This document shows, one piece after another, positions 506 to 29,092 of a DNA stretch of 64,000 nt. The notes under the pieces are model-generated. The model made no database searches. It worked only from the letters and a program-made list of their open reading frames with translations, and had not been told where the DNA came from. Source of the stretch: a virus (Duplodnaviria > Caudoviricetes); IMG/VR virus record IMGVR_UViG_3300028797_002495, positions 17,756 to 81,755 of that record; one strand, given 5' to 3'. The position numbers and the translations under genes were made by a program. Numbering within the stretch: position 1 is the first letter of the stretch; the number at the start of each line of letters is the position of its first letter.

Positions 506-2467
506 GTGGCGACATATAATATTACCGGAGAAGATCATAGACTTATTGCTCAAAAAATTATTGAAACAATTATAAAAATAGACATTTATGATGATTACGA
601 TCATTTTTTAGATAGCGTTTTATGTGGAGTAATTTCTTGTACAATGTCGATTAATTCCGAATCAGACGTAAGAAGAACAGCCTCGTTAGAATTGATACCT
701 TTAAAAAAATCAAATACTATTATCTCTGAAGATGGATTAATATGGATAAATAGAAATATTAAATTATCTATTGGAATAAAAGATTTGTATACAAATGAAT
801 ATAGATATTACAAGATGGGGACATACATTATTATGTCTCCATCTTCTTCTTATAATGAAACAACAAATGTTTTATCATTGTCGCTTTCAGATTGGACTGC
901 TAAATTAGATGGTTCAAGAAACGGAACTCTTGGTCAATTAAAAATAGTATATCCAGCTTATAATGATTATTTTAATACTAATTGGGTTGAGATAGCCAGA
1001 AATGAAGGAGTAGATGTTACAAACCCTACTGCTCTTATAAATTGGGCGAAAAATAATCCAAACGATGAATATCATAATAAACTTACAGAATCGAATGATC
1101 CCAATGTTATTAATGCGGTTTTTCAATTAATGACAAATACAAATTTAACAGAGGCACAACAGGATCAATATATGTCTATTATTAATCAAATTTATCCCGA
1201 TGCTATTCTTGATGAATTTAGAACTATTGTTTCTGATGAACCGATAGTTATTACGTCTATTAGAGAATATAGTATAATTCGTGACGCTATGATGACATGT
1301 GTTGGGCAGCTTGCATTTATTAAAGATAGAGACATAGACGAGCTTGGAGAATCAAAAGGTATGCCATACCATTTTCCTAATTGGGACTGGATGGGTTATA
1401 GAAAAGAAAATTATTTTTGGAATAAGATCCCTTATGATCTTGAATTTGATAAGGGTTGTACTGTGTGGCAAATTGTAACTACAATGCGTGATTTATATGA
1501 AAAATATCAATGTTATTTTGATATTAATAATACGTTTTGTTGCGAACTAGCTCCTAGAGGATATGATGAAATTGTAACTTTTGATAATGAATTTTTACAA
1601 TCAATATTAATTTCAGAAAATACTTCTATAGATTTTAATGAAGTTAAAAACGTTACAGAAGTTTGGGGAGCAATATTTGAAACTGATTGGTTTGCTTTTG
1701 ACGGAGTATCTTATAGTGGATCTATTTATTCTGTAAATATTAATGGATATACGGACGAAACTCATACCTCGTATTATAACGGAGATATGATTGCAATTAA
1801 AATTCCACAAAATAATTCTGGTCAATGTTATTTAAATGTTAATTCATTGGGAGCAATTCCTATTTATGATGAAAATTATGAAGTTCCTATTAATGGAAGC
1901 TCAGATACTATGAATTTAACTGCCGGAGAAACATATGTGTTTAAAATAGTTAAAAGGCGTGAGAATAAACAAGATATTATTCGTGCATATCTGTTGGGAC
2001 AATATCAATCTCATGCTATGTGTGTTTTAACAGATGGTACTGTTGGTGAAACATATACAACTACAGGAGGTGTGGCGGTTGCAAAATATTCTAAAGAATA
2101 TTTTAAGAAGGTATATAACGTTGATAATGTTTATATGGATGTGGTGCCTGATAGTCCTTTTACTATTCAGAAACTTGGAGTTCTTTTAAAAGTTTATGAT
2201 GACGAAACAAACATACAGTCTTGCGCTACAGCTTTAGAAACGGCGAGACAAGAAAATTATAGGTCAAGTAGGTTAACGGATAATATTTCTTTAACTACCA
2301 AATTAGTTCCTTATGCTGATGTAAATCAAAAAGTTTCATATCAGCGTAGCGATATGAATTCTCCACAAGAATACTTAGTAACATCTATATCTCATGATAT
2401 AGCTGGTGGAACCACTAATTGGACTTTGATAAAATATTATCCTTTATATATTGATACGGAGGATTAA
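506..2467 (+). CDS. Minor tail / baseplate hub-like protein (653 aa)
   Basis: GTG start with RBS GGAGGTG; N-terminal SESDVRRTASLEL and C-terminal YLVTSISHDIAGGTTNWTL are typical of siphophage Tal/hub proteins; position in tail cluster. Confidence 0.6.
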   Translation: MATYNITGEDHRLIAQKIIETIIKIDIYDDYDHFLDSVLCGVISCTMSINSESDVRRTASLELIPLKKSNTIISEDGLIWINRNIKLSIGIKDLYTNEYRYYKMGTYIIMSPSSSYNETTNVLSLSLSDWTAKLDGSRNGTLGQLKIVYPAYNDYFNTNWVEIARNEGVDVTNPTALINWAKNNPNDEYHNKLTESNDPNVINAVFQLMTNTNLTEAQQDQYMSIINQIYPDAILDEFRTIVSDEPIVITSIREYSIIRDAMMTCVGQLAFIKDRDIDELGESKGMPYHFPNWDWMGYRKENYFWNKIPYDLEFDKGCTVWQIVTTMRDLYEKYQCYFDINNTFCCELAPRGYDEIVTFDNEFLQSILISENTSIDFNEVKNVTEVWGAIFETDWFAFDGVSYSGSIYSVNINGYTDETHTSYYNGDMIAIKIPQNNSGQCYLNVNSLGAIPIYDENYEVPINGSSDTMNLTAGETYVFKIVKRRENKQDIIRAYLLGQYQSHAMCVLTDGTVGETYTTTGGVAVAKYSKEYFKKVYNVDNVYMDVVPDSPFTIQKLGVLLKVYDDETNIQSCATALETARQENYRSSRLTDNISLTTKLVPYADVNQKVSYQRSDMNSPQEYLVTSISHDIAGGTTNWTLIKYYPLYIDTED

Positions 2468-2472
2468 ATAAT

Positions 2473-3219
2473 ATGGCTGATAATATTGTTACTGGAAGAA
2501 AGTACAGAATTAAAGCTGCCGAAAATATTTGGGATTTAATTAGTTTTTGGACTAAATCTATAGACGTAGAAATGGATGACGGAACAACTTTACAAGATAG
2601 TTTTTCTGGTTTAAAAACTTCAAGTGATGCACAAGGCGTTATTTTAGAACAACTTGCGGACGATAACGCCGCTGTCGTAGACGGTGCTCCGGGATACAGT
2701 GATACAAAAAAATATGAAAAAGGAGACATTGTAACTTACAATGGATCACAATATTATTGTAAAACAGATATTACAAATCCTGAATCATGGAATAGTTCTC
2801 ATTGGGAATTAATAACTGGATCTTTACCATTTAAATTTGGTATAGACGCAGAGGGTAATTATGGTTATATAAAGGCAGGTGCAGATTCAGTTACCCCTTT
2901 TAGCAATTCTAAATCATTTTATATGGGAAGTGTTAATGGTAGTGGAACCTTTTATTTAAGAGATTATGGAATTAAAGAAAGTAAATGGTCAGATTTAACC
3001 GTCAATAATTTTATAGTTGGAGCTGGTTCTGCTTCTGTTAATTCTGGATGGTATTATACTGAAGGATTCGAAGGTGTTGGAGCGGGTCTTGGTGTTAGTA
3101 AATCATTTGATGCTCATGCTGGAACATTAAGTGTAAGTTCTACGCTAAGTATTTCAAGAGGAAGCGACACTAACCGTACATATCCAACCGTATATGTAAC
3201 TTTTGTGGATAATGAATAA
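2473..3219 (+). CDS. Tail-associated protein with a CBM5/12-like carbohydrate-binding motif
   Basis: YSDTKKYEKGDIVTYNGSQYYC...WNSSHW resembles the chitin-binding-type module. Confidence 0.5.
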   Translation: MADNIVTGRKYRIKAAENIWDLISFWTKSIDVEMDDGTTLQDSFSGLKTSSDAQGVILEQLADDNAAVVDGAPGYSDTKKYEKGDIVTYNGSQYYCKTDITNPESWNSSHWELITGSLPFKFGIDAEGNYGYIKAGADSVTPFSNSKSFYMGSVNGSGTFYLRDYGIKESKWSDLTVNNFIVGAGSASVNSGWYYTEGFEGVGAGLGVSKSFDAHAGTLSVSSTLSISRGSDTNRTYPTVYVTFVDNE

Positions 3220-4497: not shown

Positions 4498-4857
4498 TTG
4501 ATTATGATAAACACAATTATATCACTTTGGTATGTATGGGTAACTGTTTTAGCAATAGGTCTTGTTTGTGGATATAACGTAAAGACATTCTTAGAGAAGC
4601 CTCATGGTGCTCAGATACAAGTAATCAAAGACTGGGCGGTTGGTGCTTTAGTTGAAGCAATTGCTGCTTGGGGTGCGGATGCTGATGCAGATGTTGTATT
4701 ACGTGAAGCTTATTCCGCTTTTATAAAAATGTTTCCTGTATTTGCAAAATATGTGTCATATGAGCAATTTAAAGGATGGACTGTTAAATCATTAGAAAAA
4801 GCAAAAGAGATTATAGAGAACGAGCCTGTTGTTAAGGCTTATGTTAACGGAGAATAA
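4498..4857 (+). CDS. N-terminal TM protein, holin-like
   Basis: Hydrophobic N-terminus then amphipathic helices (REAYSAFIKMFPVFAKYVSYEQF), similar to LL-H-type holins. Confidence 0.45.
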   Translation: MIMINTIISLWYVWVTVLAIGLVCGYNVKTFLEKPHGAQIQVIKDWAVGALVEAIAAWGADADADVVLREAYSAFIKMFPVFAKYVSYEQFKGWTVKSLEKAKEIIENEPVVKAYVNGE

Positions 4858-9231: not shown

Positions 9232-10203
9232 ATGCCTTTCTATAGATGTATGCCTCCAGCAAGCTCCGGTGGTGGAGGAGGCGGTGGTGATGGCTGTGAA
9301 CATATAACGTATACTTATAATGGTCAAGAACATGAGGTCTATTTTTCACCATCAGACACGCTTACAAACCTTACAGATAATCAATTTGGAAACAACTATA
9401 CATTTAATAGTCCAATTACTATTGGAGATCATATATTAAGTGCAGCAGGATTGTTTAAATTATGTAGAAATTTTAATTCAACAATTGATTTATCTAATGC
9501 TGTGAATCTTATAAGTGTTTATTCAATGCTATATCACTGCAGTAATTACAACTTGCCTATTATCTTTCCTTATGGATCTATAAATAATTATAGCTCTATG
9601 CTTAGTAATGCATATAATTATGATCGGGCTATCAATTTTTTAATCGGGCTTAATAGTTCAACTTATACTTCAATAAATCAGGCTTTAGAAAATTGTTTTA
9701 ATTTTAATTCTAAAATAACATTTACAATGTTTAATAATTTAACAAATACACATTATACAGGAATGTTAAGAAATGCACATTCTTTTAATCAGCCATTAAT
9801 TTTAAAACAGGCTTTTACTTGTGATAGCATTTTAAGAGATGCCACTAGTATGAGTTGTCCAATAATAATTGATTTAATTTATCGACAAATTAATATAGGG
9901 TCTAATATATTAAATAATTCCTTAGTAAATACTGTGATTATATTAAATTACAACAATCATCAATGCTCTTGGTTTGGGTCTGTTGATGATATGAAATATT
10001 ATGTAAGTGATCCAGATATATTTATAAACAAGTGTTCTAGACTTCATAAAAATATAAATAAATTAAATTTTGAAGAAACTACAAATGGATATAGGAGCAT
10101 CGATGAAGGAATTAATGTATATGTTTTGAATAATGTTGGAGATGCTTGTAATGAATTCAATAATGTTTGGTATAACTACTATAATGAATACCCGATTTAT
10201 TAG
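9232..10203 (+). CDS. Asn-rich repeat protein, MPFYR paralog 1 (DUF285/BspA-like LRR)
   Basis: Repeated FNSxI/FNQP motifs, N-terminal MPFYRC plus Gly linker, conserved C-terminus NEYPxY. Confidence 0.6.
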   Translation: MPFYRCMPPASSGGGGGGGDGCEHITYTYNGQEHEVYFSPSDTLTNLTDNQFGNNYTFNSPITIGDHILSAAGLFKLCRNFNSTIDLSNAVNLISVYSMLYHCSNYNLPIIFPYGSINNYSSMLSNAYNYDRAINFLIGLNSSTYTSINQALENCFNFNSKITFTMFNNLTNTHYTGMLRNAHSFNQPLILKQAFTCDSILRDATSMSCPIIIDLIYRQINIGSNILNNSLVNTVIILNYNNHQCSWFGSVDDMKYYVSDPDIFINKCSRLHKNINKLNFEETTNGYRSIDEGINVYVLNNVGDACNEFNNVWYNYYNEYPIY

Positions 10204-11732: not shown

Positions 11733-12818
11733 ATGCCATTTTATAGAAGCACCTTACAAGACACCAGTGGAGGTGGGGGTGGAGGAGGCGATGTTTGGGG
11801 AAGTATATATGTTAAATACGAAAGCATAGATGATTATTTTACCCAAAATCCTCCACAAATATCTTTAGGAAATAATAGAATATTTGCTTCATTGAACAAC
11901 ATAGAAAATGCAAGCGCACTAACAGAAATAAAATTTGGAAATGGAGTTAATGCGATTTCTAGTGTTTTTTATGGATATTCATATTTTAATTGTCCTATTA
12001 ATTTATTTAATACTTTTTCATTGACTTATGCAATATCTTGTGTGGGAAATTGTTTTAATTATAATTCACAAATTGAATTTCCCAATTTTATACAATGCCC
12101 TCCACATACGCAATATTCTAGTTATGTCAATATAGCGTATAACTGGATATTTGCAAATTGTAATAATTATAATCAGCCCACGACAATTAGAATTCATGCT
12201 CGTCCCGGAGACGACTCTTCTGATCTATATGGATATTTTGATGATGTGTTTTATAATTGTAAAAATTTAAATTCTAAAATTATTTTTGATATATTTAAAT
12301 ATAATTATAACAATGAAATCTCAGATACTGAGATTCTTAATCATTCATTGTCTGATTTTTTTTGTGGGTGTTCAAATTTTAATCAACCCATGATATTTTA
12401 TCCGGGAGCTAGTTTATATCGAACATTTTCTGGGTGTCATAATTATAATCAGCCAGTAGTATGCGATTTTAGGAATAGTTATTTTGAGAGAATGTTTGAT
12501 GGTGCAAATAATATGAGTTCAGATATTATATTCTTACATTCGAATGATGAACAGTTATACTATCCTACGTTTAATGGAATGATTAGTAATATGAGTAGGG
12601 GAAATTCAATAAATATATATATATATAATATGACGAATATTAAGCAAGATAATATTGTAGCTAATGTTTCAGTCGTTCCTACTTGGACTGCTGTAACCAA
12701 CGGCTTTTATAATTCAACATATAATATTTATCTATTAAATAATGTTGAAGACGCTTTAAATAATTTTAATAATTATTATCATAATTTTTATGGGGAATAC
12801 CCTATATTTTTTGATTAA
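11733..12818 (+). CDS. Asn-rich repeat protein, MPFYR paralog 3
   Basis: MPFYR plus Gly linker, YNQP/FNQP repeats, C-terminal LNNVEDALNNFNN...GEYP. Confidence 0.6.
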   Translation: MPFYRSTLQDTSGGGGGGGDVWGSIYVKYESIDDYFTQNPPQISLGNNRIFASLNNIENASALTEIKFGNGVNAISSVFYGYSYFNCPINLFNTFSLTYAISCVGNCFNYNSQIEFPNFIQCPPHTQYSSYVNIAYNWIFANCNNYNQPTTIRIHARPGDDSSDLYGYFDDVFYNCKNLNSKIIFDIFKYNYNNEISDTEILNHSLSDFFCGCSNFNQPMIFYPGASLYRTFSGCHNYNQPVVCDFRNSYFERMFDGANNMSSDIIFLHSNDEQLYYPTFNGMISNMSRGNSINIYIYNMTNIKQDNIVANVSVVPTWTAVTNGFYNSTYNIYLLNNVEDALNNFNNYYHNFYGEYPIFFD

Positions 12819-12830
12819 AGGAGAAAAAGG

Positions 12831-13328
12831 ATGAAAATAACGGTAGGTATACCAGCTTATAAAGCAAAAGGACATATAGAAAATTGTTTATCTTCAATAC
12901 AGATACAGACAATAAGAGATGAAGTTGAAGTAATAATTGCTTCAGATTTTCCTGAAGATAATTATGAATATCTTAAAAATCTCTTTCCTGATTTAAATAT
13001 TACAATACTTGAATGTGAAGAAAATACTGGTCCAGGATTGGCAAGACAGAGAGCGCTTGACGCTTGCAAAACAGATTGGATTACATTTATTGATGCCGAT
13101 GATTTATTTTATACTCCATTTGCCTTAGAGACATTAGGAGGAGCAATCACTCCAGATTCAGTTGTTGTTCAAGGAGTTTTCTTACAAGAAGTTGATCCTA
13201 ATCCACAAAAGATTAGAACTGTTCCTATAGACAATAAAAATCATCCATGGGTATTTGGAAGATTATATAATAAGAAATTTTTAGATGCTAATGAGATTGG
13301 TTTTTCTGAATTGAGAGCTATGGAGGAT
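12831..13328 (+). CDS. GT-A (family 2-like) glycosyltransferase, exon 1
   Basis: ITVGIPAYKA, GPGLARQRALD, WITFIDADD (DxD), HPWVFGRLY; the reading frame stops right after AMED at the intron boundary. Confidence 0.9.
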
Positions 13329-14247
13329 TGACTATTTACTAGTCCTCCCTAAACGATGTGAACGCTAACCAGCGGTGTGCGTAGATTAAAATTAATAACT
13401 ACGTGCTAACGGCGAAACTCTAGACCAGACAACGCCGTGCTAAGACTTTTCATCAATATAGTTATTCGAGGTGATAATGACTGGAATATACTGTATTGAA
13501 AACACTTTAAATCATAATAAATATATTGGACTATCTACTCAAATAGAAATTAGATGGCAAAATCATAAAAGATTATTAAAGCGAGGTAAGCATGAAAATG
13601 TTCATCTCCAAAATGCTTATAATAAATACGGAGACGTATTTATTTTTTATGTTATAGAAGAATGTAAACAAGAAGAACTTAATGAGCGAGAAAAGTATTG
13701 GATAAAATTTTATGATACTAAAAACCACGGCTACAACGAATCAGAAGGTGGCGGTGGTATTTTTAATCCTACAGATGACGTTAGAAGAAAAATATCTGAA
13801 GGATTAAAAGGCGAAAAGAATGGAATGTATGGAGTGCATCTTTGTGGGGAATTAAATCCTAATTATGGAAAACATCATTCTAAAGAAACTAGAAAAAAAA
13901 TATCTGAACAAACAAAAAAGAGGATAGGAGAAAAAAGTAGTAGAGCAAGAAAAGTTCAAGCTTCAACTGGCGAAATTTTTAATGTAATGTTAGAGGCGGC
14001 TAAATGGGCTAATCTTAAAGATATTTCATCTATAGGCAAGGCTTGTAGAGGAATTGCAAAAACAGCTGGAAAACATCCTATTACTGGAGAAAAGATTAAA
14101 TGGAAATATATTGATGAAAAGTAAAGTGTAACGACTATCCCCGATGAATGTAAGGGAGTAGAATGTCTATTGGTACGACATTCGAAGTGCATCGCTACGA
14201 AAGTAGATGAAATAGTCTATTCCTTATGGGGACATAAGGTATTAAAG
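13329..14247 (+). mobile_element. Group I self-splicing intron (IA-like) in the glycosyltransferase
   Basis: 5' exon GGAGGAU pairs with IGS GUCCUCC (U-G at the splice site); Q GCCGUGCUAAG, R GUAACGACUAU, S AAUAGUCU; P9 CCUUAUG/CAUAAGG; terminal G at 14247; splicing restores ...AMED-GEFNW... in frame. Confidence 0.92.
13471..14124 (+). CDS. Intron-encoded GIY-YIG homing endonuclease with NUMOD3/NUMOD1-type DNA-binding repeats (likely start ATG 13477)
   Basis: TGIYCIEN...KYIGLS, HSKETRKKISE, SIGKACRG...AGKH motifs; lies in the P6 loop region of the intron. Confidence 0.92.
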   Translation: MIMTGIYCIENTLNHNKYIGLSTQIEIRWQNHKRLLKRGKHENVHLQNAYNKYGDVFIFYVIEECKQEELNEREKYWIKFYDTKNHGYNESEGGGGIFNPTDDVRRKISEGLKGEKNGMYGVHLCGELNPNYGKHHSKETRKKISEQTKKRIGEKSSRARKVQASTGEIFNVMLEAAKWANLKDISSIGKACRGIAKTAGKHPITGEKIKWKYIDEK

Positions 14248-14841
14248 GGTGAATTTAACTGGAAGATACGTATGACAATTGAGGGAACTCCTCTAAAAAT
14301 ATCTTTTATAGAAAATCCAGTTTATGTTTGGAAAATAGGTTCAGAACATAGTATTACAAGAACTGGAAAAGATGATAAAGGAATTCCTCAGTATAACTTC
14401 GATCTTTGTCAGGTTGGTGCTACTATCGCTTCTATACGTGCAGCGAAATTCTGCAAACAAAAGAATCCATTTAACGGTGGAATTGATAGATTTATTACAG
14501 AAATGATGGTTGATAAATATTTTACATATGTCGAGTGTGTAGATAAAAAACCTATATTTGCTGAACAGAATTTGTTTAATGCAAAGAGATTTTATCATGA
14601 ATGCTATAAAGAAATTGAACCAAAGATTAGTGATAAGATTCTTAAAGATATGTATACAATGCAGAGAGGTCTTCATGCCAATGAATTATTAGGGATTATT
14701 CCTGATATTTCTTTCTTTGAATTTATGGACAAAGTTAGAAATGATGAATATGGTGGCGAAGAAGAACTTAAAGCAATTAGAGCAAAACTTCCTCAAGATA
14801 TTATAGATAATGATATTAAGACGGGGGTTGCTATATTTTAA
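14248..14841 (+). CDS. Glycosyltransferase exon 2 (spliced product 363 aa)
   Basis: Starts GGT GAA TTT AAC TGG right after the intron terminal G; ED-x-x-FN is the conserved GT-A motif; PVYVWK..SEHSITR follows. Confidence 0.88.
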   Translation, partial: GEFNWKIRMTIEGTPLKISFIENPVYVWKIGSEHSITRTGKDDKGIPQYNFDLCQVGATIASIRAAKFCKQKNPFNGGIDRFITEMMVDKYFTYVECVDKKPIFAEQNLFNAKRFYHECYKEIEPKISDKILKDMYTMQRGLHANELLGIIPDISFFEFMDKVRNDEYGGEEELKAIRAKLPQDIIDNDIKTGVAIF

Positions 14842-14853
14842 TTAGGAGGCACT

Positions 14854-15660
14854 ATGGATTACGAAAAAGAGTATTCTTTTTGTGGAGCGTTGCCATCTCC
14901 TGATGATGAAAGGGATTATAAATTAGATAGTTTAATTATGAGAGCAATACAACTACCTGAAGAATATATTGTTCCGATTCCTGCGATTATTGCAGATCAG
15001 AAAAACGTAGGTAGCTGCGTAGCTTCAACTATCGCACAAATAAAACATTCTCAAGAATTTGAAGAATTAGGCGACACTGAAATGTTTAGTGCCGCCTATA
15101 TTTATGCAAATCGCAAAGATACAGATTATCAAGGGTCGGGAATGTATCCTAGAGAAGCGTTACAAAATCTTGTAGAAGACGGTATTTGTCACCAAAAAGA
15201 TTTTCAAGGATATGACAAATATGAATATGCTGATTTAAAAGCACAGTATCTTTCGCAAAAGGATAAATTAGATAAAATTGCAAAGCCGTATAGGATTGCA
15301 TCTTATTACAGATTGAATGATTTGGAAGATATTAAAATCGCTCTAACAACTGTGGGATATGTGCAAGTTTGTTATCCAGTTTATAAGTGCCTTTATAATC
15401 CAGATAAAAATGGGATGGTTAAATATAACAAGCTATCTCACGGAAAGAATTATGGCGGTCATAGTATGACTTGCGTTGGATATTCAGACAAGAAGCAGGC
15501 GTTGGCGATTGTTAATTCTTGGGGGAAAGATTACGGCACTTCTATTGAGGGAGTTGCCGATGGTGGCTGTATTTGGATTCCGTATGATTACGAATTTACA
15601 GAAGCTTGGGCTTTAGTTGATGCGACCACTCAAAAAGAACTTTTAAGATTGTTTAATTAA
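14854..15660 (+). CDS. Papain-like (C1 family) cysteine peptidase
   Basis: DQKNVGSCVAS (Gln/Cys), GGHSMTCVGY (His), IVNSWG (Asn). Confidence 0.9.
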   Translation: MDYEKEYSFCGALPSPDDERDYKLDSLIMRAIQLPEEYIVPIPAIIADQKNVGSCVASTIAQIKHSQEFEELGDTEMFSAAYIYANRKDTDYQGSGMYPREALQNLVEDGICHQKDFQGYDKYEYADLKAQYLSQKDKLDKIAKPYRIASYYRLNDLEDIKIALTTVGYVQVCYPVYKCLYNPDKNGMVKYNKLSHGKNYGGHSMTCVGYSDKKQALAIVNSWGKDYGTSIEGVADGGCIWIPYDYEFTEAWALVDATTQKELLRLFN

Positions 15661-15894: not shown

Positions 15895-17364
15895 ATGGCT
15901 TTAGATATTATTTCTTATGCCCTTTCTATGGGCTATACTGACGAAACCGTTATTGGTGGAGGAGCCATTAAAGGTAAGAACTGTACTATAGATAGTATCG
16001 ATGATATACCTAACGGCAAAAGAATAACTTTCTTGTGGACTTTAGACGATGGTTCAACAAGAACCACCACAATGGATGTCCTTAACGGAGAAAAGGGCGA
16101 TGCTGGCGTTCAGGGTCAGACCGGAGCCAAGGGCGATAAGGGAGACAAGGGCGATAAAGGCGAACAAGGAATACAGGGACAAAAGGGAGACAAAGGAGAT
16201 GTTGGTGCTCAAGGATTAACTGGGGCACAAGGAATACAAGGAATACAGGGCGTTAAAGGCGATAAGGGCGATGACGGATATCCATTCTTAATTTATAAAC
16301 AGTACGACACTATTAGTGAGTTTGACGCATCAGACTTCCCAGAAATAGGGCTGATGTTTATGGTTATGACTTTTATAGAGGATATGGGCTATCCGATTTA
16401 TCGTTATACTGGCGTAGGAACACCGCCCTACTCTCTTATTACTTATATGAATACTGAAGGAATTAAGGGAGATAAAGGGGATAAGGGTGATACTGGAGCA
16501 CAAGGTATTCAAGGAGAACAAGGCGAAACTGGTCTTGGAATAAAGAGCGTTGATATTGATGCTAATAATCACCTTATTATTACATACACAGATAACGAAA
16601 CCGAAGATGCTGGCGTGATATATGGAGACGCTTCTCTTGTTGCGAGTGTGACTGCAAACGCTTCTGTTGGAGCAATATCAAGCGGAACCACGATTACGGC
16701 AGGAACTTCATTTACTGATTTCGTAAGAAAGTTGCTCATTTCTGAACTTGCTCCTACTATAGGTTTCTCTATTAGTAAGAGCGGAAATGTTGTGTATGGA
16801 AGTTCTTATACAGAAACTCTTACAGTTAATGTTTCTAATATGGGAACTGCAAAAAAGATCAAGAGTATTGCTTGGTATCAGGATAATACGTTGTTAAGAA
16901 CTGATACTATAGACAGCACAACGACTGGCTCTTGGACATATACAATGGGTAGTGCCACAACAAGTACGACCACATTTAAGGCTATTATAACCTATACAAA
17001 GTCGGACGATATTGATACTACTTCAACAAAAACTGCAAGCATTAATTTCTACTATAACAAGTTCTATGGTGCGGTTAGCGATGTTAATCCTAGTGAGGCA
17101 ACGGTCGAAGCCCTTACCTCTGCTCTTGGCACTGCAAAGGGTGGCACGTATTCATTTACTGTTACGGCAGGCAGAATATGTTATGCATATCCTAAGAGTC
17201 TTGGTGCTCTTGCAAGTATTAAGGACGGTAACGGATTCAGCTTATTTGATTCATTCACAAGAACAGAACAGACATATACGCAAAATGGAACAAGTGTTGT
17301 TTATTACAGATACGTACTTACAGATGCGACCACGGTTAGTGGCTATAGCGTAACGTTTGCATAA
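15895..17364 (+). CDS. Collagen-like fibre protein
   Basis: Two Gly-X-Y tracts (GDKGDKGDKGEQGIQG) and a Thr/Ser-rich C-terminal domain. Confidence 0.85.
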   Translation: MALDIISYALSMGYTDETVIGGGAIKGKNCTIDSIDDIPNGKRITFLWTLDDGSTRTTTMDVLNGEKGDAGVQGQTGAKGDKGDKGDKGEQGIQGQKGDKGDVGAQGLTGAQGIQGIQGVKGDKGDDGYPFLIYKQYDTISEFDASDFPEIGLMFMVMTFIEDMGYPIYRYTGVGTPPYSLITYMNTEGIKGDKGDKGDTGAQGIQGEQGETGLGIKSVDIDANNHLIITYTDNETEDAGVIYGDASLVASVTANASVGAISSGTTITAGTSFTDFVRKLLISELAPTIGFSISKSGNVVYGSSYTETLTVNVSNMGTAKKIKSIAWYQDNTLLRTDTIDSTTTGSWTYTMGSATTSTTTFKAIITYTKSDDIDTTSTKTASINFYYNKFYGAVSDVNPSEATVEALTSALGTAKGGTYSFTVTAGRICYAYPKSLGALASIKDGNGFSLFDSFTRTEQTYTQNGTSVVYYRYVLTDATTVSGYSVTFA

Positions 17365-18554: not shown

Positions 18555-19580
18555 ATGAGTACAATATATAAAAATGGTACATATTATGGTCAAATAGAAA
18601 CAATGTTTGGCTATACGCCTTTAGGAACTATTATCTCCTACTATGGTGAAACCGCTCCAAGATTTTATTTGGCATGCGATGGAACTATTTATAATAAAAC
18701 AGATTATCCAGAGCTTGCAGAGCATTTGTTATCTTTAACAAATCATTCTCAGTACGAAGTTTCTGGCGATAATACTAAGTTTAAAGTGCCAGACTTAAGA
18801 GGAGAATTTATTAGAGGTACTGGAACTAATTCACATATAGGTCAAGGGTCAGGTGAATCTGTAGGAGAACATCAGTCAGCGACAGACTTACAATATTTTG
18901 GATTTTACGAAGGCACGCTTTATGCTTCTGGAGAATATCCTACTAATTATGACGGTTTGCGACATAATGGTAAAAGATTAAATGTGAATAATTTGACAGG
19001 ATCTTATACTACAGTTGCAGAAAGTTCTTCTTTGTCTCAATTTGAAACAAATATTTATGCTCGCCCCACTAATACTTCAGTTCTTTATTGTATTTCTTAT
19101 AAAGACATATATACCAAACCTATAGAGGAAGATATGCCTCCTGCAGATATGGAAGAAGTGCTCTCCCCTCTTCCCTCTGTGATGTCTCGTAGAATGATAT
19201 ATAGCACGACTGAGCAGGTAATAGGTCAGTGGATAGACGGTAAGCCACTATATCAAAAGGTCGTACAACTTACCAATCAGCAATTTGGTGATGTGAATAC
19301 AACTAAATATTTCAATTTAATGGATGCGACTGATTTATCTATAGTATCTATGAAAGCAACAATATCTTTTGTTATGGGTGGGGCAACATATATGCTTAAT
19401 GTAGATTCTACCTTATTTAATGATGCCGGCACATTAAATTCTTTAAGAACGATAGTAGCATATGATACCTCAACGAAGAAAGTAAGACTGAAAACCATTC
19501 AATCTATAACCGGTACAGTTGAAAATATACCTATAAATGATATTACTGCGATTATTCAATACACAAAAACCACTGATTAA
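18555..19580 (+). CDS. Phage tail-collar domain protein plus one copy of the same repeat domain
   Basis: TPLGTIISYYGETAPRFYLACDG...YPEL...FKVPDLRGEFIRG is the tail collar motif. Confidence 0.85.
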   Translation: MSTIYKNGTYYGQIETMFGYTPLGTIISYYGETAPRFYLACDGTIYNKTDYPELAEHLLSLTNHSQYEVSGDNTKFKVPDLRGEFIRGTGTNSHIGQGSGESVGEHQSATDLQYFGFYEGTLYASGEYPTNYDGLRHNGKRLNVNNLTGSYTTVAESSSLSQFETNIYARPTNTSVLYCISYKDIYTKPIEEDMPPADMEEVLSPLPSVMSRRMIYSTTEQVIGQWIDGKPLYQKVVQLTNQQFGDVNTTKYFNLMDATDLSIVSMKATISFVMGGATYMLNVDSTLFNDAGTLNSLRTIVAYDTSTKKVRLKTIQSITGTVENIPINDITAIIQYTKTTD

Positions 19581-20431: not shown

Positions 20432-20691
20432 TGAGTTTTAATTATTATCTTTATACTGAAGATGATGAAATAAGGGATCAATTAATATTTGACGCTCGTC
20501 AAATAAATAGCATTTACGCAGTTACAAAATTATTAAATGAATACAATATATATTTGAACGACTATACCAACACCTCAGAAGTATCCACGTCGCTTTGTAA
20601 AATCGATTTTAAGACACTTTACAAGCGTAAGGGTACTCTGGGGTGTATTGGGTTTGGAAGTCACTTTTATGAGGTCGTTACGGACTCGTAG
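20431..20691 (+). CDS. Small hypothetical protein
   Basis: ORF track; start overlaps the previous stop (TAATG). Confidence 0.45.
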   Translation: MSFNYYLYTEDDEIRDQLIFDARQINSIYAVTKLLNEYNIYLNDYTNTSEVSTSLCKIDFKTLYKRKGTLGCIGFGSHFYEVVTDS

Positions 20692-20771
20692 AGTTATTCG
20701 CTTTGCGGGTTAAGATAACGAATAATTTTACGTTTAAAACGAGTAATAATTAACAAGAAAGGAGGAATCAT

Positions 20772-22220
20772 ATGCCAGATATAGAAAAAGCTGTTAAATA
20801 TATGGAAGACATTGCCAATGATGATTCTCATGGCTACGCCCAAGATAATCGAGGAGGAAATCCAGACTATGACTGCTCCTCTCTTGTAGGTACTGCTTTA
20901 AATGTGGCAGGCTTTAATGTTTCAAAGGGGAGCACAACTAGAAATCTTTATCAGCAAATGATTAATTGTGGATTTAAAGAAATAGCAATTGATGCTCCTA
21001 GAAAAAGAGGCGATGTATTTTTAAGCGTTGGTCATCATGTAGTAATGTGTACCGATGCTGACAATATAGTACACGCTTCATTAAATGAAAATGGTGGAAT
21101 TAAAAATGGACAGCCTGGCGACCAGACTGGTAAAGAGATTTGCATTAGAAGTTATTACAATCATAAGAATGGTTGGAGCTATCATTTAAGATACGAATCT
21201 TTTACTCCAAATCCTGTAACTCAAAAGGGATTCTTGGTTGATATAAGTCATCATAATCTTATATTAGATTGGGTTGATCTTGCAAGAGAAGTTGACGGAG
21301 TTATAGTGCGTGCTGGATACCGTGGTTATCAGAATGGAACCATTACAGAAGATAAACTATTCGATTATCACATAAAAGAATTGACAAAAAGGAATGTAAA
21401 GGTGGGCTTGTATTTCTACTCTCAGGCAATTACAGAAGTCGAAGGAGTCGAAGAAGCCAAATGGATTATAGATAAAGCAAAAGCATATAAAATTGATTAC
21501 CCGATTTTTATAGATTCGGAATATGCTAATAAAACTCATAATGGTAGAGCTGATGCGTTAAGTAAAGATGCAAGAACGAAAATTACAATTGCGTTCTGTA
21601 ATGAAGTTGCTAAAGCGGGATATGTTGCCGGGGTTTATGCTTCAGAGAACTGGTTTAAGAATCAGTTAGATTTTAATAAATTAACTAATTACTTTATATG
21701 GTGTGCAAAATATAGCACAAACAAACCTAATATACCACATTACGATGCATGGCAATATGGCAGCAAACAATTCTCGTGGGCAAAAGCACCAATAGATGTT
21801 AACGAATGGTACAATAATAATCCTAAAATTGTAACCCCTGACGTTACACCAACTCAACCGTTTAAAAATACAGTAAAAGTAAATACACATCTTAATATTC
21901 GCAACAAGCCAGTAGTAGGTGAAATTGTTGGAAAACTCAATAATGGAGATACCGTTGTAGTTATTGGATATCAAAAAGGATGGCTACAGATTGGATCTAA
22001 CGAATGGGTAAGTGAGACATATGTTCACAGTTCGTATGGGCTTGTTACTGCTAACTCACTAAATGTTCGTAAGGGTAATTCTACTGCTTATGAAAGTCTC
22101 GGATTTGTTCATAAGAATAACAATGTTAAAATCGTTAAAGAATTAGGTGGGTGGTATCAGATAATTGCTCCAAACGGATTGTTTGGTTGGGCAAGCAGTA
22201 AATATATAGACTTGATTTAG
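20772..22220 (+). CDS. Endolysin: NlpC/P60-like amidohydrolase + GH25 muramidase + two SH3b domains
   Basis: YAQDNR...DYDCSSLV...GHHV; LVDISHHN..VIVRAGYRG..GLYFYSQA..IDSE; LNIRNKP and LNVRKG SH3 repeats; RBS AAAGGAGG. Confidence 0.92.
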   Translation: MPDIEKAVKYMEDIANDDSHGYAQDNRGGNPDYDCSSLVGTALNVAGFNVSKGSTTRNLYQQMINCGFKEIAIDAPRKRGDVFLSVGHHVVMCTDADNIVHASLNENGGIKNGQPGDQTGKEICIRSYYNHKNGWSYHLRYESFTPNPVTQKGFLVDISHHNLILDWVDLAREVDGVIVRAGYRGYQNGTITEDKLFDYHIKELTKRNVKVGLYFYSQAITEVEGVEEAKWIIDKAKAYKIDYPIFIDSEYANKTHNGRADALSKDARTKITIAFCNEVAKAGYVAGVYASENWFKNQLDFNKLTNYFIWCAKYSTNKPNIPHYDAWQYGSKQFSWAKAPIDVNEWYNNNPKIVTPDVTPTQPFKNTVKVNTHLNIRNKPVVGEIVGKLNNGDTVVVIGYQKGWLQIGSNEWVSETYVHSSYGLVTANSLNVRKGNSTAYESLGFVHKNNNVKIVKELGGWYQIIAPNGLFGWASSKYIDLI

Positions 22221-25602: not shown

Positions 25603-26562
25603 CTACATACTCTTTCTTTCTGCAATCTCTGCCATTTTAGCAGCGTTAGATCTAGTATAACCATGTACTCTTGAATACTGTAGATAACCATTCATTCTAT
25701 CAATCTTGGTTATCATTGAACTGCCACATATTGGACATACGTCCATTTCAAGTTCTTCATGACCACAATCTTCACAATATGCCAATGAAAGATTTACGCC
25801 TTCGTAGAAGCCGATTTGCATAGCTCTGCGAACGATTGATTTAATTGCTTGAATATTATATCCAAGATGATATCTACAATACTGTATTTTTCCACCATTG
25901 AAATAATCCCAAAATCTTCTTTCAGCATCTTGTTTTTGAATGGGACTAATGTCTTCTGTTACATGACAATGGAATGAATTACTTACATAAGGACGATCTG
26001 ATACTTTTTCAACCACTCCATATTTCTTACGGAACTGTTCTACTTGTGTTCCACATAAACTCTCTGCTGGTGTTCCGTAGATCGCATAGAGTATTTGGTC
26101 TTCTTCTTTAATCCTATCAACATAATCATTGATATATTTCATTACTTCTAATGGAAACTGTCCGTCCTCTAATATTGATTTTCCATTATATAATTCATTT
26201 AATTCATTTAATGCAGTAATTCCAAAACTCATTGTCATAGGTTTAAGCAATGGCTTGATTTTTTCATCAGCCTTAAGATGACCATTAAGTAATCCACCTT
26301 GCATCCATGCCATAGGGTTTGTACTTGCTTTCTTTTCACCTAAAAAGTCGTATGTTCTCTTATGTAGATTTCTTATCATTTCAAGATAATAATCAAGGAC
26401 TTTATAGAAATCTTTATTTTCTTGTCTTGATTTTGCAAGAATCATTGGTAAATGCAATGATATTACGCCAAGATTGCAACGAGATATAAATATTGGTACA
26501 TCGTTTTCATCAGCCGGATGCATTCCACCACGTTCAAACCAAGGACTTAAACTAGCTCTACA
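25603..26562 (-). CDS. nrdD: Anaerobic ribonucleotide reductase, exon 2
   Basis: Begins CRASL, contains RCNLGVISL, YGTPAES, Zn ribbon CEDC..CPIC and the glycyl-radical motif RMNGYL. Confidence 0.95.
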   Translation of the reverse strand, partial: CRASLSPWFERGGMHPADENDVPIFISRCNLGVISLHLPMILAKSRQENKDFYKVLDYYLEMIRNLHKRTYDFLGEKKASTNPMAWMQGGLLNGHLKADEKIKPLLKPMTMSFGITALNELNELYNGKSILEDGQFPLEVMKYINDYVDRIKEEDQILYAIYGTPAESLCGTQVEQFRKKYGVVEKVSDRPYVSNSFHCHVTEDISPIQKQDAERRFWDYFNGGKIQYCRYHLGYNIQAIKSIVRRAMQIGFYEGVNLSLAYCEDCGHEELEMDVCPICGSSMITKIDRMNGYLQYSRVHGYTRSNAAKMAEIAERKSM

Positions 26563-27377
26563 CAAACCTTATAAATTTCATAAGGTTCAGACTATATCTT
26601 CACATATTATTCTGTAACCAAATAATATGTGCTCCGCACTTCCACTTGAGGAATTTCACCTCAAATGTACTCTACTCGCTTCTTCATACAAGTTTTTCTC
26701 TTATATTATGCTTTCGATAGTCGTTTGACTTAAATGTAACTGAATAAATAACCTAAATAATCTTCGTTAAGTTCACCTTTTAATACTCTAGCAATTTTAT
26801 GTCTATCAAGTTTTAGTTGTTTACCACATTCTCTGATCGATTTAAAATTAAAGCTTTCTCCATTTATTATATTCACTGCTTTAATTTTGGTATTATTTCT
26901 ATGTGTACGATTTCCGCTTTTCCAACCGTGTAAAACATTATATGAATTTGTACACCATTCTAAATTATCTAACTGATTATTTAATTTATTACTATCTATG
27001 TGATTAATATATTTGTATTCATTCGGATTTGGAATGAAACAATGTGCTAAAATCACATGAACTCTTTGATGATGATTCTTACCAGTTTGATCTCGATATT
27101 GAACCTGCATATATCCGTCTGTCCCTTTATGAGGAGTTAATTTCAAACCGGTTCTTTTACTATATATATTTAAATTATCATCTACTAAAAATCCTTTATA
27201 TTCTTTCAATACCTTTATCCTCAAAGGTATTTATTCAGTACATCTTTAGCACAGGATTATCTCTTTTGAGCCTTCCCTGTTAGCCATTCTATTAGTTGCC
27301 ATTTCCTGCAATTACTTTCGTTAGAATGACACCCTAGATTTCTAGGTTCACGGAGTTTTACATGAGCTATATTACTA
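26563..27377 (-). mobile_element. Group I intron (IA-like) in nrdD, splitting the MG/CR motif
   Basis: Exon AUGGGU pairs with IGS GCUCAU (U-G at the splice site); Q AAUCCUGUGCUAAG, R CAAACGACUAUC, S AAGAUAUAGUCU; P9 CCUUAU/AUAAGG; terminal G at 26563; splicing gives ISLMG-CRASL in frame. Confidence 0.93.
26730..27224 (-). CDS. Intron-encoded HNH homing endonuclease with C-terminal NUMOD1-like domain
   Basis: RVHVILAHCF...INHIDSNKLNNQLDNLEWCTNSYN; FKSIRECGKQL. Confidence 0.9.
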   Translation of the reverse strand: MRIKVLKEYKGFLVDDNLNIYSKRTGLKLTPHKGTDGYMQVQYRDQTGKNHHQRVHVILAHCFIPNPNEYKYINHIDSNKLNNQLDNLEWCTNSYNVLHGWKSGNRTHRNNTKIKAVNIINGESFNFKSIRECGKQLKLDRHKIARVLKGELNEDYLGYLFSYI

Positions 27378-28640
27378 ACCCATGAGGGAAATAACTTTCC
27401 CATATTTTTTATAAATATTAGCTATATATCCCTCTCCTGTAAGAGATAAATAATCGGGATACATTGTTTTACTACTACACAAAACGGCTTTATCAAATAA
27501 ATATTCGTAAGCCTTGCCGTCTCCATGTAGATTATCATCATATAAGAATGTTAATTTTGGAAAGAGTACTGGTTTCTTAAAACCATCTTTGCCCTGACCA
27601 TCTCTTCTTACATCTAATGCTATTTCAGAAATAATCAATCCCCACTTAGAAGTATTAATCCCAAAAGACATTGCAATAAACGGATAATCACCTCTTGAAG
27701 ATCCAACTGTATTAAACTTATATTCCCAACCTTGGAATCCTTGTTCTATATCTCTTCTTACATCTGCTTCAGCATTCATCTTAGCATCTTCTGATGCCAA
27801 TTCATAAATAGCATTTAATTGAACTTGATCTAAATCAGCCATATTAATGCCTGCCGCACGTAAAGTTTTTCTTTGTGTTGAAGTTGCCATATTATGATAT
27901 TTTTTAAAGTATTTCTGATAAGACTTTTCAGCATACGGAGATAAAATATCATCAACTTGTGGTATTGTAAAACCACCATACTGCTGGCTGGCAGCACTTA
28001 ATACAATATCGCCGATTACGTCAAAGGCTGTATCAACAGTCTTGGGTTCGTTGTACCATATGTTACCCATTTCAAAACCGCCTTTAAGAACTCCACCAAC
28101 ATCAAATAAACAACAGTTGATTCCATCAAGTCTATCTTTCATATCGTTGATGTAGATATATCCATCTTCAGCAGCTTGTAATTCTTCTTTATTTAAGAAA
28201 AACTTTTGGTATAATTCTTTATTAAGCTGACCGTAGATCAAACTTCTTTGAGAACTTATCATGGCTGAATCAGTGTTGGCATTAGATACATCACCTATAT
28301 ATCTAATTTCTTGGCTCTTTTTATAAACTTCATCTAGCATCTTTACAAAAGCGGTTTTATAATCTCTATATTGTTTATATGATTCTCCGACCTTTGGATA
28401 AAGTTCAGTAAGAGCATTTTCTACTATGATGTGCATATCTTCGACCGGAACTAATTCCTCATCATATTCTTCAACATAGAAGTCTTCTTCAGCTATAATA
28501 TCTGCAACACGATTGCATATTGCACTATAATCTTCTTCGGTAAGCTTTTGTAAAGCTCTGTGGGCAGATTTGTTACAAGCATCAATTATCTTTTGTTCGT
28601 CATACGGAACAATCACACCATTTTTCTTAATGACTCTCAT
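27378..28640 (-). CDS. nrdD: Anaerobic ribonucleotide reductase, exon 1 with ATP-cone (spliced product about 740 aa)
   Basis: MRVIKKNG ATP-cone, NANTDS, GYIYINDM..NCC, QQYGGFTIP, PVLFPKL; ends ISLMG. Confidence 0.95.
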
Positions 28641-28657
28641 CTTTAGTACGCCTTTCT

Positions 28658-29092
28658 TTACTTCCAATAATGTTCTGTTATATAATTAACTGCTTCAAGC
28701 ATTGAAGGAAGTACTACGTCACAAGCGTCTTTTGCCCAGGGATAAACTTCAATTTTACCAAATCCAATAATTGGTTTATTTAAAGCTTGAGCAAATCCAA
28801 TTTCGTAGTTAGTTCCACAGCTTGAATCAGAAAAATCAAGATTGACAAGCAAGATATCACTTTCACGTAGATGATTTAAAAATAATTTTCTACATTCTTT
28901 ATCACTAGCGGGAAGGAATGATACATAATCATAATGTCTATTAGGATTAAATGTATTAAATTCACTTCCTAAAGCGGTACTTACATAATCTCTCCATGAT
29001 GAACTAATTTCTTGGGATACGTTTCTACACGCTCCACTAAGATATATTTTCCTCATTCTTAAATTTCTCCTTATTATATGCTTCACGATCAA
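28658..29092 (-). CDS. Nucleoside 2-deoxyribosyltransferase-like / nucleotide hydrolase
   Basis: KIYLSG, FNPN, SDILLVNL, GTNYEIGFAQALNKPII. Confidence 0.8.
   Translation of the reverse strand: MIVKHIIRRNLRMRKIYLSGACRNVSQEISSSWRDYVSTALGSEFNTFNPNRHYDYVSFLPASDKECRKLFLNHLRESDILLVNLDFSDSSCGTNYEIGFAQALNKPIIGFGKIEVYPWAKDACDVVLPSMLEAVNYITEHYWK

Follow-up and report, generated by a model that had tools for sequence, protein, structure and literature searches.

What separates the two halves of a phage glycosyltransferase gene whose reading frame breaks off next to its catalytic-loop codons, and is the intervening DNA removed from the RNA? The question is raised by a 64,000-nt stretch of the genome of a tailed rumen phage, hereafter the window, which comprises bases 17756–81755 of an 81.7-kb IMG/VR virus record (IMGVR_UViG_3300028797_002495) and to which the coordinates below refer. 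Sequence comparison confirms that positions 13329–14247 of the window are a group I intron, subgroup IA2, belonging by the criteria tested to the class of the T4 td and nrdD introns. We put at roughly nine in ten the probability that the element is both active and mobile, with splicing that yields a full-length glycosyltransferase and with homing, driven by its endonuclease, into a conserved catalytic-loop sequence.

Boundaries of the intron and its intron-less alleles

The interrupted gene and its insertion consist of the following parts (here and below, ^ marks a splice junction or insertion point).

12831–13328, + strand: glycosyltransferase exon 1, aa 1–166, GT-A/GT2 nucleotide-sugar domain with DADD at 88–91, ending ..LRAMED; Pfam PF00535 at 9.6e–18
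13329–14247, + strand: group I intron, IA2 (T4 td/nrdD-like), 919 nt, boundaries from intron-less alleles
14247, + strand: terminal guanosine (omega-G) at the 3' splice site, the sole register restoring ..MED^GEF..
14248–14841, + strand: glycosyltransferase exon 2, aa 167–363 plus stop codon (14839–14841), beginning GGU GAA UUU AAC (G-E-F-N), which holds the P10 target GGUGAAU

The gene is split between Asp166 and Gly167. Exon 1 ends in AUG GAG GAU and the next in-frame codon is UGA (13329–13331), so that unspliced RNA stops at once, straight after Asp166, as a previous reading of the sequence alone (the sequence-only reading) had claimed. Together the exons encode a 363-aa glycosyltransferase, and the junction 13328^14248 is the only register that gives ..LRAMED^GEFNWK.., a block invariant in the protein alignment. 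Both exons are collinear with uninterrupted homologues, and the spliced product matches P0026, the protein of an intron-less allele, at 343 of 363 positions (94.5%).

A search for intron-less alleles had been proposed together with the sequence-only reading, and it proved productive. Exon 2 retrieved 21 related loci from IMG/VR, in 20 of which residue 166 directly joins the first residue of exon 2, and a profile search of metagenome contigs gave 80 loci, 79 of them contiguous at the same junction; the remaining one (L106) is broken by a scaffold gap. The two sets overlap and amount to ~100 loci with 83 distinct junction sequences, whose consensus is GC.AUGGA(A/G)GA(U/C)^GG.GA..U.AA.UGGAA. These alleles place the intron, to the base, at the 13329–14247 originally proposed for it. 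Among 50,697 phage records, blastn of the whole region gave no match and tblastn of exon 2 gave none either.

It should be noted that 5 of the 20 amino acid differences from P0026 cluster in the 20 residues just 3' of the insertion (window 14254–14310; spliced aa 169–186). Judged from the sequences, this cluster could be a co-conversion tract; the stretch is variable across the family anyway and we make no claim for it.

RNA fold, covariation and the intron-encoded protein

The elements of the ribozyme and the open reading frame (ORF) that it carries are listed below; P denotes paired and J joining segments.

13322–13348, + strand: P1 hairpin, 5' exon GGAGGAU + UG (13322–30) pairing with UAGUCCUCC (13340–48)
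13354–13360, + strand: P3 5' strand CGAUGUG, pairing with UGCAUCG at 14188–14194
13363–13406, + strand: two extra hairpins between P3 and J3/4, A (13363–66/13371–74) and B (13377–84/13399–406)
13409–13438, + strand: P4 (13409–14/13433–38) and P5 (13419–21/13427–29), td-like core ..ACGGCGAAACUCUAGACCAGACAACGCCGU
13439–13460, + strand: P6 5' strand (13439–41, pairing with 14125–27) and P6a 5' strand (13445–60)
13477–14124, + strand: intron ORF of 215 aa, I-TevI-like GIY-YIG homing endonuclease with NUMOD3 repeats; Shine-Dalgarno sequence GAGG at 13468–71
14107–14127, + strand: P6a 3' strand (14107–22) and P6 3' strand (14125–27)
14133–14239, + strand: 3' catalytic half with P7, P7.1, P7.2, P3 3' strand (14188–94), P8 and P9

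P1 is formed by GGAGGAU(UG) and (UA)GUCCUCC, with the U13328.G13342 wobble at the 5' splice site, and its pairing is kept in four ORF-less sister introns that are described further below. The loop of P1 holds the P10 guide AUUUACU (13334–40), which makes 7 bp with GGUGAAU of exon 2 (14248–54). P2 is lacking, and CUAAA separates P1 from P3. The assignment of P3 is ambiguous from a single sequence, with three candidate 5' strands; the pairing 13354–60/14188–94 is favoured by 7–9 kcal/mol and confirmed by the sister introns, where A-U is replaced by G-C at 13356/14192, and the alternative 5' strands 13373–80 and 13399–406 are excluded by energy and covariation. Hairpins A and B are kept in all four sister introns, with 2 compensatory positions in A (counted by eye from the alignment) and 4 in B, and they have no counterpart in the td, nrdD and Providencia PS3 introns. 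Downstream of them UAA precedes P4. The P4–P6 segment fits the consensus of T4 td; both td and DNA-polymerase introns are recovered by a pattern made from this consensus. P6a is a perfect 16-bp stem (13445–60/14107–22) which brackets the endonuclease ORF. In the 3' half, P7 pairs GACUA (14133–37) with UAGUC (14213–17); it is invariant and identical to that of T4 td and nrdD. Between P7 and the 3' strand of P3 lie P7.1 (14138–41/14154–57) and P7.2 (14161–67/14177–83), a hallmark of the IA class, followed by P8 (14195–98/14203–06) with its GAAA loop and P9 (14222–28/14233–39). P1, P10, P7, P9 and the in-frame restoration of ED-GEFN had all been read from the single sequence, and every one of them was recovered in its original place.

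The group I assignment itself, also part of that reading, is carried by statistics and covariation. A covariance model (R1) built from three other phage introns alone, with the window sequence excluded, matches 14129–14240 at 89.1 bits (E 1.3e–19). Over ~107 nt the 3' half shares 69–74% identity with the introns of three phage genes, a tape measure gene and a terminase gene, each from a Vibrio phage, and the nrdD gene of a T4-like phage; the window intron also resembles those of T4 nrdD and of T7-like DNA-polymerase genes. In an alignment with the three annotated introns, which are those that R1 was built from, 96% of the cells are paired and 12 of 27 pairs show compensatory changes (3/4 in P7.1 and 3/7 in P7.2 among them), a result reached by none of 500 shuffles; slid controls of this alignment pair at about 35%. 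A script alignment of the mini-intron (P6a trimmed) with the four ORF-less sisters adds compensatory changes in P3, hairpin B, P4, P5, P6, P7.1, P7.2, P8 and P9.

The ORF within P6a begins at ATG 13477, with GAGG 5 nt upstream. Its assignment to the GIY-YIG endonucleases, made before from the letters alone, was borne out by Pfam (GIY-YIG PF01541 at 1.1e–8; NUMOD3 at 1.8e–12 in two stretches), by PHROG 314 (homing endonuclease, 9e–33, residues 2–213) and by alignment of residues 2–90 with I-TevI 3–93 (PDB 1mk0/1ln0, 2e–17), which brings the GIY, YIG, Arg, Glu and Asn positions into register. The 3' strand of P6a consists of the last codons of the endonuclease gene and the first base of its stop codon. 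Since P6a is a hairpin of only 4–6 bp in ORF-less relatives, the endonuclease gene is inserted in the loop of P6a.

The host gene, the proposed mechanism and its alternatives

Used as a profile, 20 intron-less homologues gave Staphylococcus aureus TarS as the best match (5tz8, 9.5e–16). In the alignment E165-D166 corresponds to TarS E177-D178, DADD 88–91 (nearly invariant in the family) to D91/D93/D94, and R72 to R75. D178 is the proposed catalytic base of TarS, where E177A abolished activity and D178N severely reduced it (PMC5156392). As D166 aligns with D178, the intron lies immediately 3' of the catalytic-base codon; the sequence-only reading was thus right about the catalytic nature of the ED motif, but the intron follows the ED codons and is not inserted inside them. 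The AlphaFold2 (AF2) model of the homologue L001 (65–76% identical; predicted local distance difference test score, pLDDT, 89; predicted template-modelling score, pTM, 0.88) retrieved TarS in Foldseek (5e–14), then TarP and RmlT, with template-modelling (TM) scores of 0.5–0.6 over about 340 columns. S. aureus TarS, prophage-encoded TarP and Listeria RmlT, GT2 enzymes of wall teichoic acid, are accordingly the best profile and fold matches, over ~340 of 362 residues and with the DxD, the Arg and the E-D catalytic loop aligned; identity to them is 14–18% only, TM about 0.6, and the trimerisation domain is lacking. Such similarity supports a TarS/TarP-like GT2 enzyme (GT-A fold, inverting), whose acceptor would be a host wall polymer or a virion protein. 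The family counts 771 protein clusters at E≤1e–10, nearly all of ~362 aa, with LRAMEDG invariant, in agreement with the earlier expectation that the target gene is common and conserved. One glycosyltransferase cluster is named from a Pseudobutyrivibrio metagenome-assembled genome (MAG).

The gene has the following neighbours.

506–3219: tail proteins
9232–10203 and 11733–12818: DUF285/BspA-like proteins
14854–15660: papain-like peptidase
15895–17364: collagen-like tail fibre
18555–19580: tail-collar fibre
20772–22220: endolysin with Amidase_5, GH25 and SH3 domains

These genes, with functions in tail fibres and lysis, support the location in a tail cluster that had been assigned to the glycosyltransferase, and a Gram-positive host. 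The genes flanking it in relatives vary and are again fibre-like.

By homology and covariation the transcribed RNA folds into a td/nrdD-like core (P1, P3–P8, P4–P6, P7 with P7.1/P7.2, P9), and we propose that the intron would bind guanosine and cleave after U13328. P10 would then position exon 2 for ligation of the exons after G14247, with the predicted ligated junction ...AUGGAGGAU-GGUGAAUUU... in one 363-codon frame and Glu165-Asp166 at the junction. In a mixed infection the endonuclease would cut the highly conserved intron-less target ..GCNAUGGARGAY^GGNGAR.., and repair from the intron-bearing copy would spread the intron. P0026, L051 and L056 were identified as candidates for such target alleles.

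Several observations weigh against this scheme. The Rfam model RF00028 reaches only 23 bits (E 0.002) on 14073–14239, and a scan at the gathering threshold (50 bits) does not detect the intron; a low score is expected because the 650-nt ORF in P6a interrupts the model, and the score lies below the formal threshold all the same. IA2 introns do not typically have hairpins such as the two between P3 and P4. Finally, GACUAUUU in the P1 loop (13330–37) is a perfect 8-bp complement of AAAUAGUC in J8/7 and the 3' strand of P7 (14210–17). By complementarity, the 5' end of the intron mimics the 5' strand of P7, and this pairing could compete with P7 formation.

The last point can also be taken in favour of a regulated switch, in which splicing, beyond being selfish, times or gates production of the glycosyltransferase. 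Termination of the unspliced RNA at UGA right after Asp166 would fit such a switch, and so would an alternative pairing, 13394–401/13459–66, located just 5' of the ribosome-binding site of the endonuclease. We nevertheless regard a switch as unlikely: nearly all homologues work intron-free, no sensor or ligand-binding element was found, and a distribution as sporadic as this one marks a selfish element. The earlier statement that splicing gates expression of the glycosyltransferase holds trivially, as for any intron, but nothing points to regulation.

The low Rfam score and the extra hairpins could also be read as decay, i.e. a splicing-dead intron and a glycosyltransferase that is a pseudogene in this phage, a gene which could be dispensable given that nearly all relatives are intron-less. 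We consider this very improbable. All core helices are intact and covarying, both exons are open, as close to the intron-less allele as stated above and with the catalytic residues all kept, and the endonuclease ORF is intact; in addition, exon-2-only gene calls of at least 90% identity on ~17 contigs suggest that the interrupted allele persists. That a selfish endonuclease cassette splits the gene at the DNA level and two polypeptides assemble without RNA splicing, as for the mobE-split nrdA of phage Aeh1, is scarcely credible: a stop codon does end exon 1, and translation of exon 2 could begin at a TTG or at Met175, but no Shine-Dalgarno sequence precedes exon 2, the break lies inside the catalytic loop beside the catalytic base, and the sequences on either side of the ORF make up an entire covarying ribozyme whose P1, P10 and terminal G fall precisely on the junction. 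An active and mobile intron thus remains our preferred reading.

Further intron sites, sister introns and known systems

Introns of a second lineage occupy two further positions in the glycosyltransferase family. In L004 (2990–3935) a different intron with its own GIY-YIG ORF interrupts the Trp140 codon (U^GG), 80 nt 5' of the site in the window. A complete intron in L152 (2415–3500) and L153 lies inside the Met164 codon, 7 nt upstream of the window's site (..GCC AU^UAACUAAUUCAGUGGC.., P1 GCCAU/GUGGC, 3' end ..UAUAUCG^G GAA GAC), and L106 (309–363) holds the 3' end of a Met164-type intron at the same position. The Trp140 and Met164 introns are mutually related (ribozyme segments 72–88%, endonucleases 34% identical) and score 58 and 52 bits with R1. 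Their ribozyme segments have no detectable similarity to those of the window intron, and matches to it are confined to the endonuclease ORFs. Exon-2-only gene calls that begin 'MRYSK^GEFNWK' (P0125) or 'M^GE(L/I)NWK' (P0128 and P0138) hint at further introns at the window's own site. The ~17 contigs mentioned above carry members of the P0121 cluster, with at least 90% identity to the 189-aa fragment of the window itself.

A scan with the P7.1 loop motif gave >107 IMG/VR loci, and four of these loci, from rumen phages (L215, L221, L230 and L236), carry the sister introns used above, which are 251–257 nt long, ORF-less and 79–85% identical to both halves of the window ribozyme. Their host gene, of ~161 codons, follows head-tail connector-like genes, has a faint match to PHROG 'major tail protein' and is split at ..ALED^YITQY..; no homologue of it was found in the 81.7-kb record. 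The 5' exons, GCUCUUGAGGAU in the sisters and GCUAUGGAGGAU in the window, are identical at 10 of 12 bases, and the guide sequence is the same. Downstream of the intron the exons are unrelated, and each P10 guide fits its own 3' exon (UGACGUA/UACAUCA in the sisters, AUUUACU/GGUGAAU in the window). The sisters thus have the P1 guide, the 5' exon GAGGAU and the two extra hairpins in common with the window intron, and differ from it in length, in a short P6a hairpin without endonuclease, in the host gene and in the P10 guide. In L236 (4275–4625) the putative major tail protein gene seems to have a second insertion of ~320 nt, ~13 codons 3' of the first intron, and homology to exon 2 resumes at 4625.

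A shared 5' exon next to unrelated 3' exons suggests ectopic insertion at a look-alike site, by reverse splicing or illegitimate homing and in either direction; the copy in the glycosyltransferase may itself be such an ectopic insertion, with later capture of the endonuclease in P6a. Taken together, one ribozyme lineage would occupy two unrelated late genes at sites sharing 10 of 12 5'-exon bases (GCUNUNGAGGAU) as a result of ectopic transposition and endonuclease capture, and an 80-nt catalytic-loop stretch would be contested by two lineages at three sites, two of them 7 nt apart and flanking the ED codons. We offer this combined picture tentatively, at a little less than even odds.

Other interruptions were noticed, two of them by group I introns in the same genome. 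The nrdD gene on the – strand of the window (25603–28667) is split into exon 1 (28667–27375) and exon 2 (26565–25603), with an ORF for an I-HmuI-like HNH endonuclease (27224–26730), a partial RF00028 match (27280–27211), a P7 motif (26725–26715) and an R1 score of 18.5 bits at 26566–26726; the interruption is a group I intron of the classic nrdD kind. Upstream of the window, the tape measure gene (L025:1501–2864, equal to C1:7258–8621) harbours a group I intron that scores 49.3 bits with RF00028; a 292-aa ORF with an HNH-like motif comes next, and the gene resumes at L025:2865. A cmscan of L025 as a whole gave no match, though the same intron reached this score in the genome search. The tape measure gene of Vibrio phage vB_CoeS_P1 (PV206818.1; L040:540–700 and 1496–1620) is annotated as two coding sequences with nothing between them; the gap has two group-I-like cores (AACGACUA...AUAUAGUC) and probably contains unannotated introns. 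Within the window, a weak R1 match at 1197–1295 (+ strand; 16 bits, E 0.09) inside a 653-aa tail protein ORF is probably due to chance, and a candidate intron at 20432–20771 (motif AACGACTATAC) was dropped for want of an RF00028 signal.

By a virion-module glycosyltransferase the short list of phage genes that host mobile group I introns is extended. The sequence-only reading knew of no described case in a glycosyltransferase, and we likewise found none in full-text literature searches, in a review of bacterial group I introns or in a 2025 paper on group II introns in phage. Such elements habitually target the codons of functionally critical residues (PMC3984707), and the finding again shows them aimed at catalytic-residue codons. 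The evidence supports a fairly ordinary selfish element in a host gene not previously reported, to which the multi-site hot spot and the apparent jump add interest: three sites within 80 nt, two lineages, and ORF-less sisters elsewhere with the same guide make up a compact natural system for the study of intron site change and endonuclease gain. There is a lesson for annotation as well, as public data present the gene in two or three separate pieces and the intron is missed at the Rfam threshold.

Among known systems, the T4 td intron with I-TevI is close in several respects. Like the window intron, it carries the ORF of its GIY-YIG endonuclease as a loop in the P6 region; the two have a common IA2 core with P7.1/P7.2 and a nearly identical P4–P6 consensus, and both are inserted at active-site codons of a conserved enzyme. 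In contrast to td, the host is a GT2 glycosyltransferase and not thymidylate synthase, P2 is lacking and two covarying hairpins stand between P3 and P4, and the DNA-binding part of the endonuclease, compared with I-TevI, has NUMOD3 repeats. The T4 nrdD (sunY) intron, as found in the T4-like phage SA20RB (L123), can be aligned with the 3' half in every column and is 97% identical to it over 32 nt of P7/P7.1. Common to both are the GAUGAAUGUAA P7.1 loop, the GAAA-capped P8 and the P2-less order of P1, UAAA and P3, whereas the nrdD intron has its ORF after the core, resides in another host gene and has no insertion between P3 and P4.

Cluster J mycobacteriophages have introns in capsid and tail genes and not in their glycosyltransferases (PMC3706429). 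While these introns are of different types and encode a LAGLIDADG endonuclease, they are like the window intron in that they reside in virion-module genes rather than in genes of DNA metabolism, and in their sporadic occurrence among close relatives (PMC3706429).

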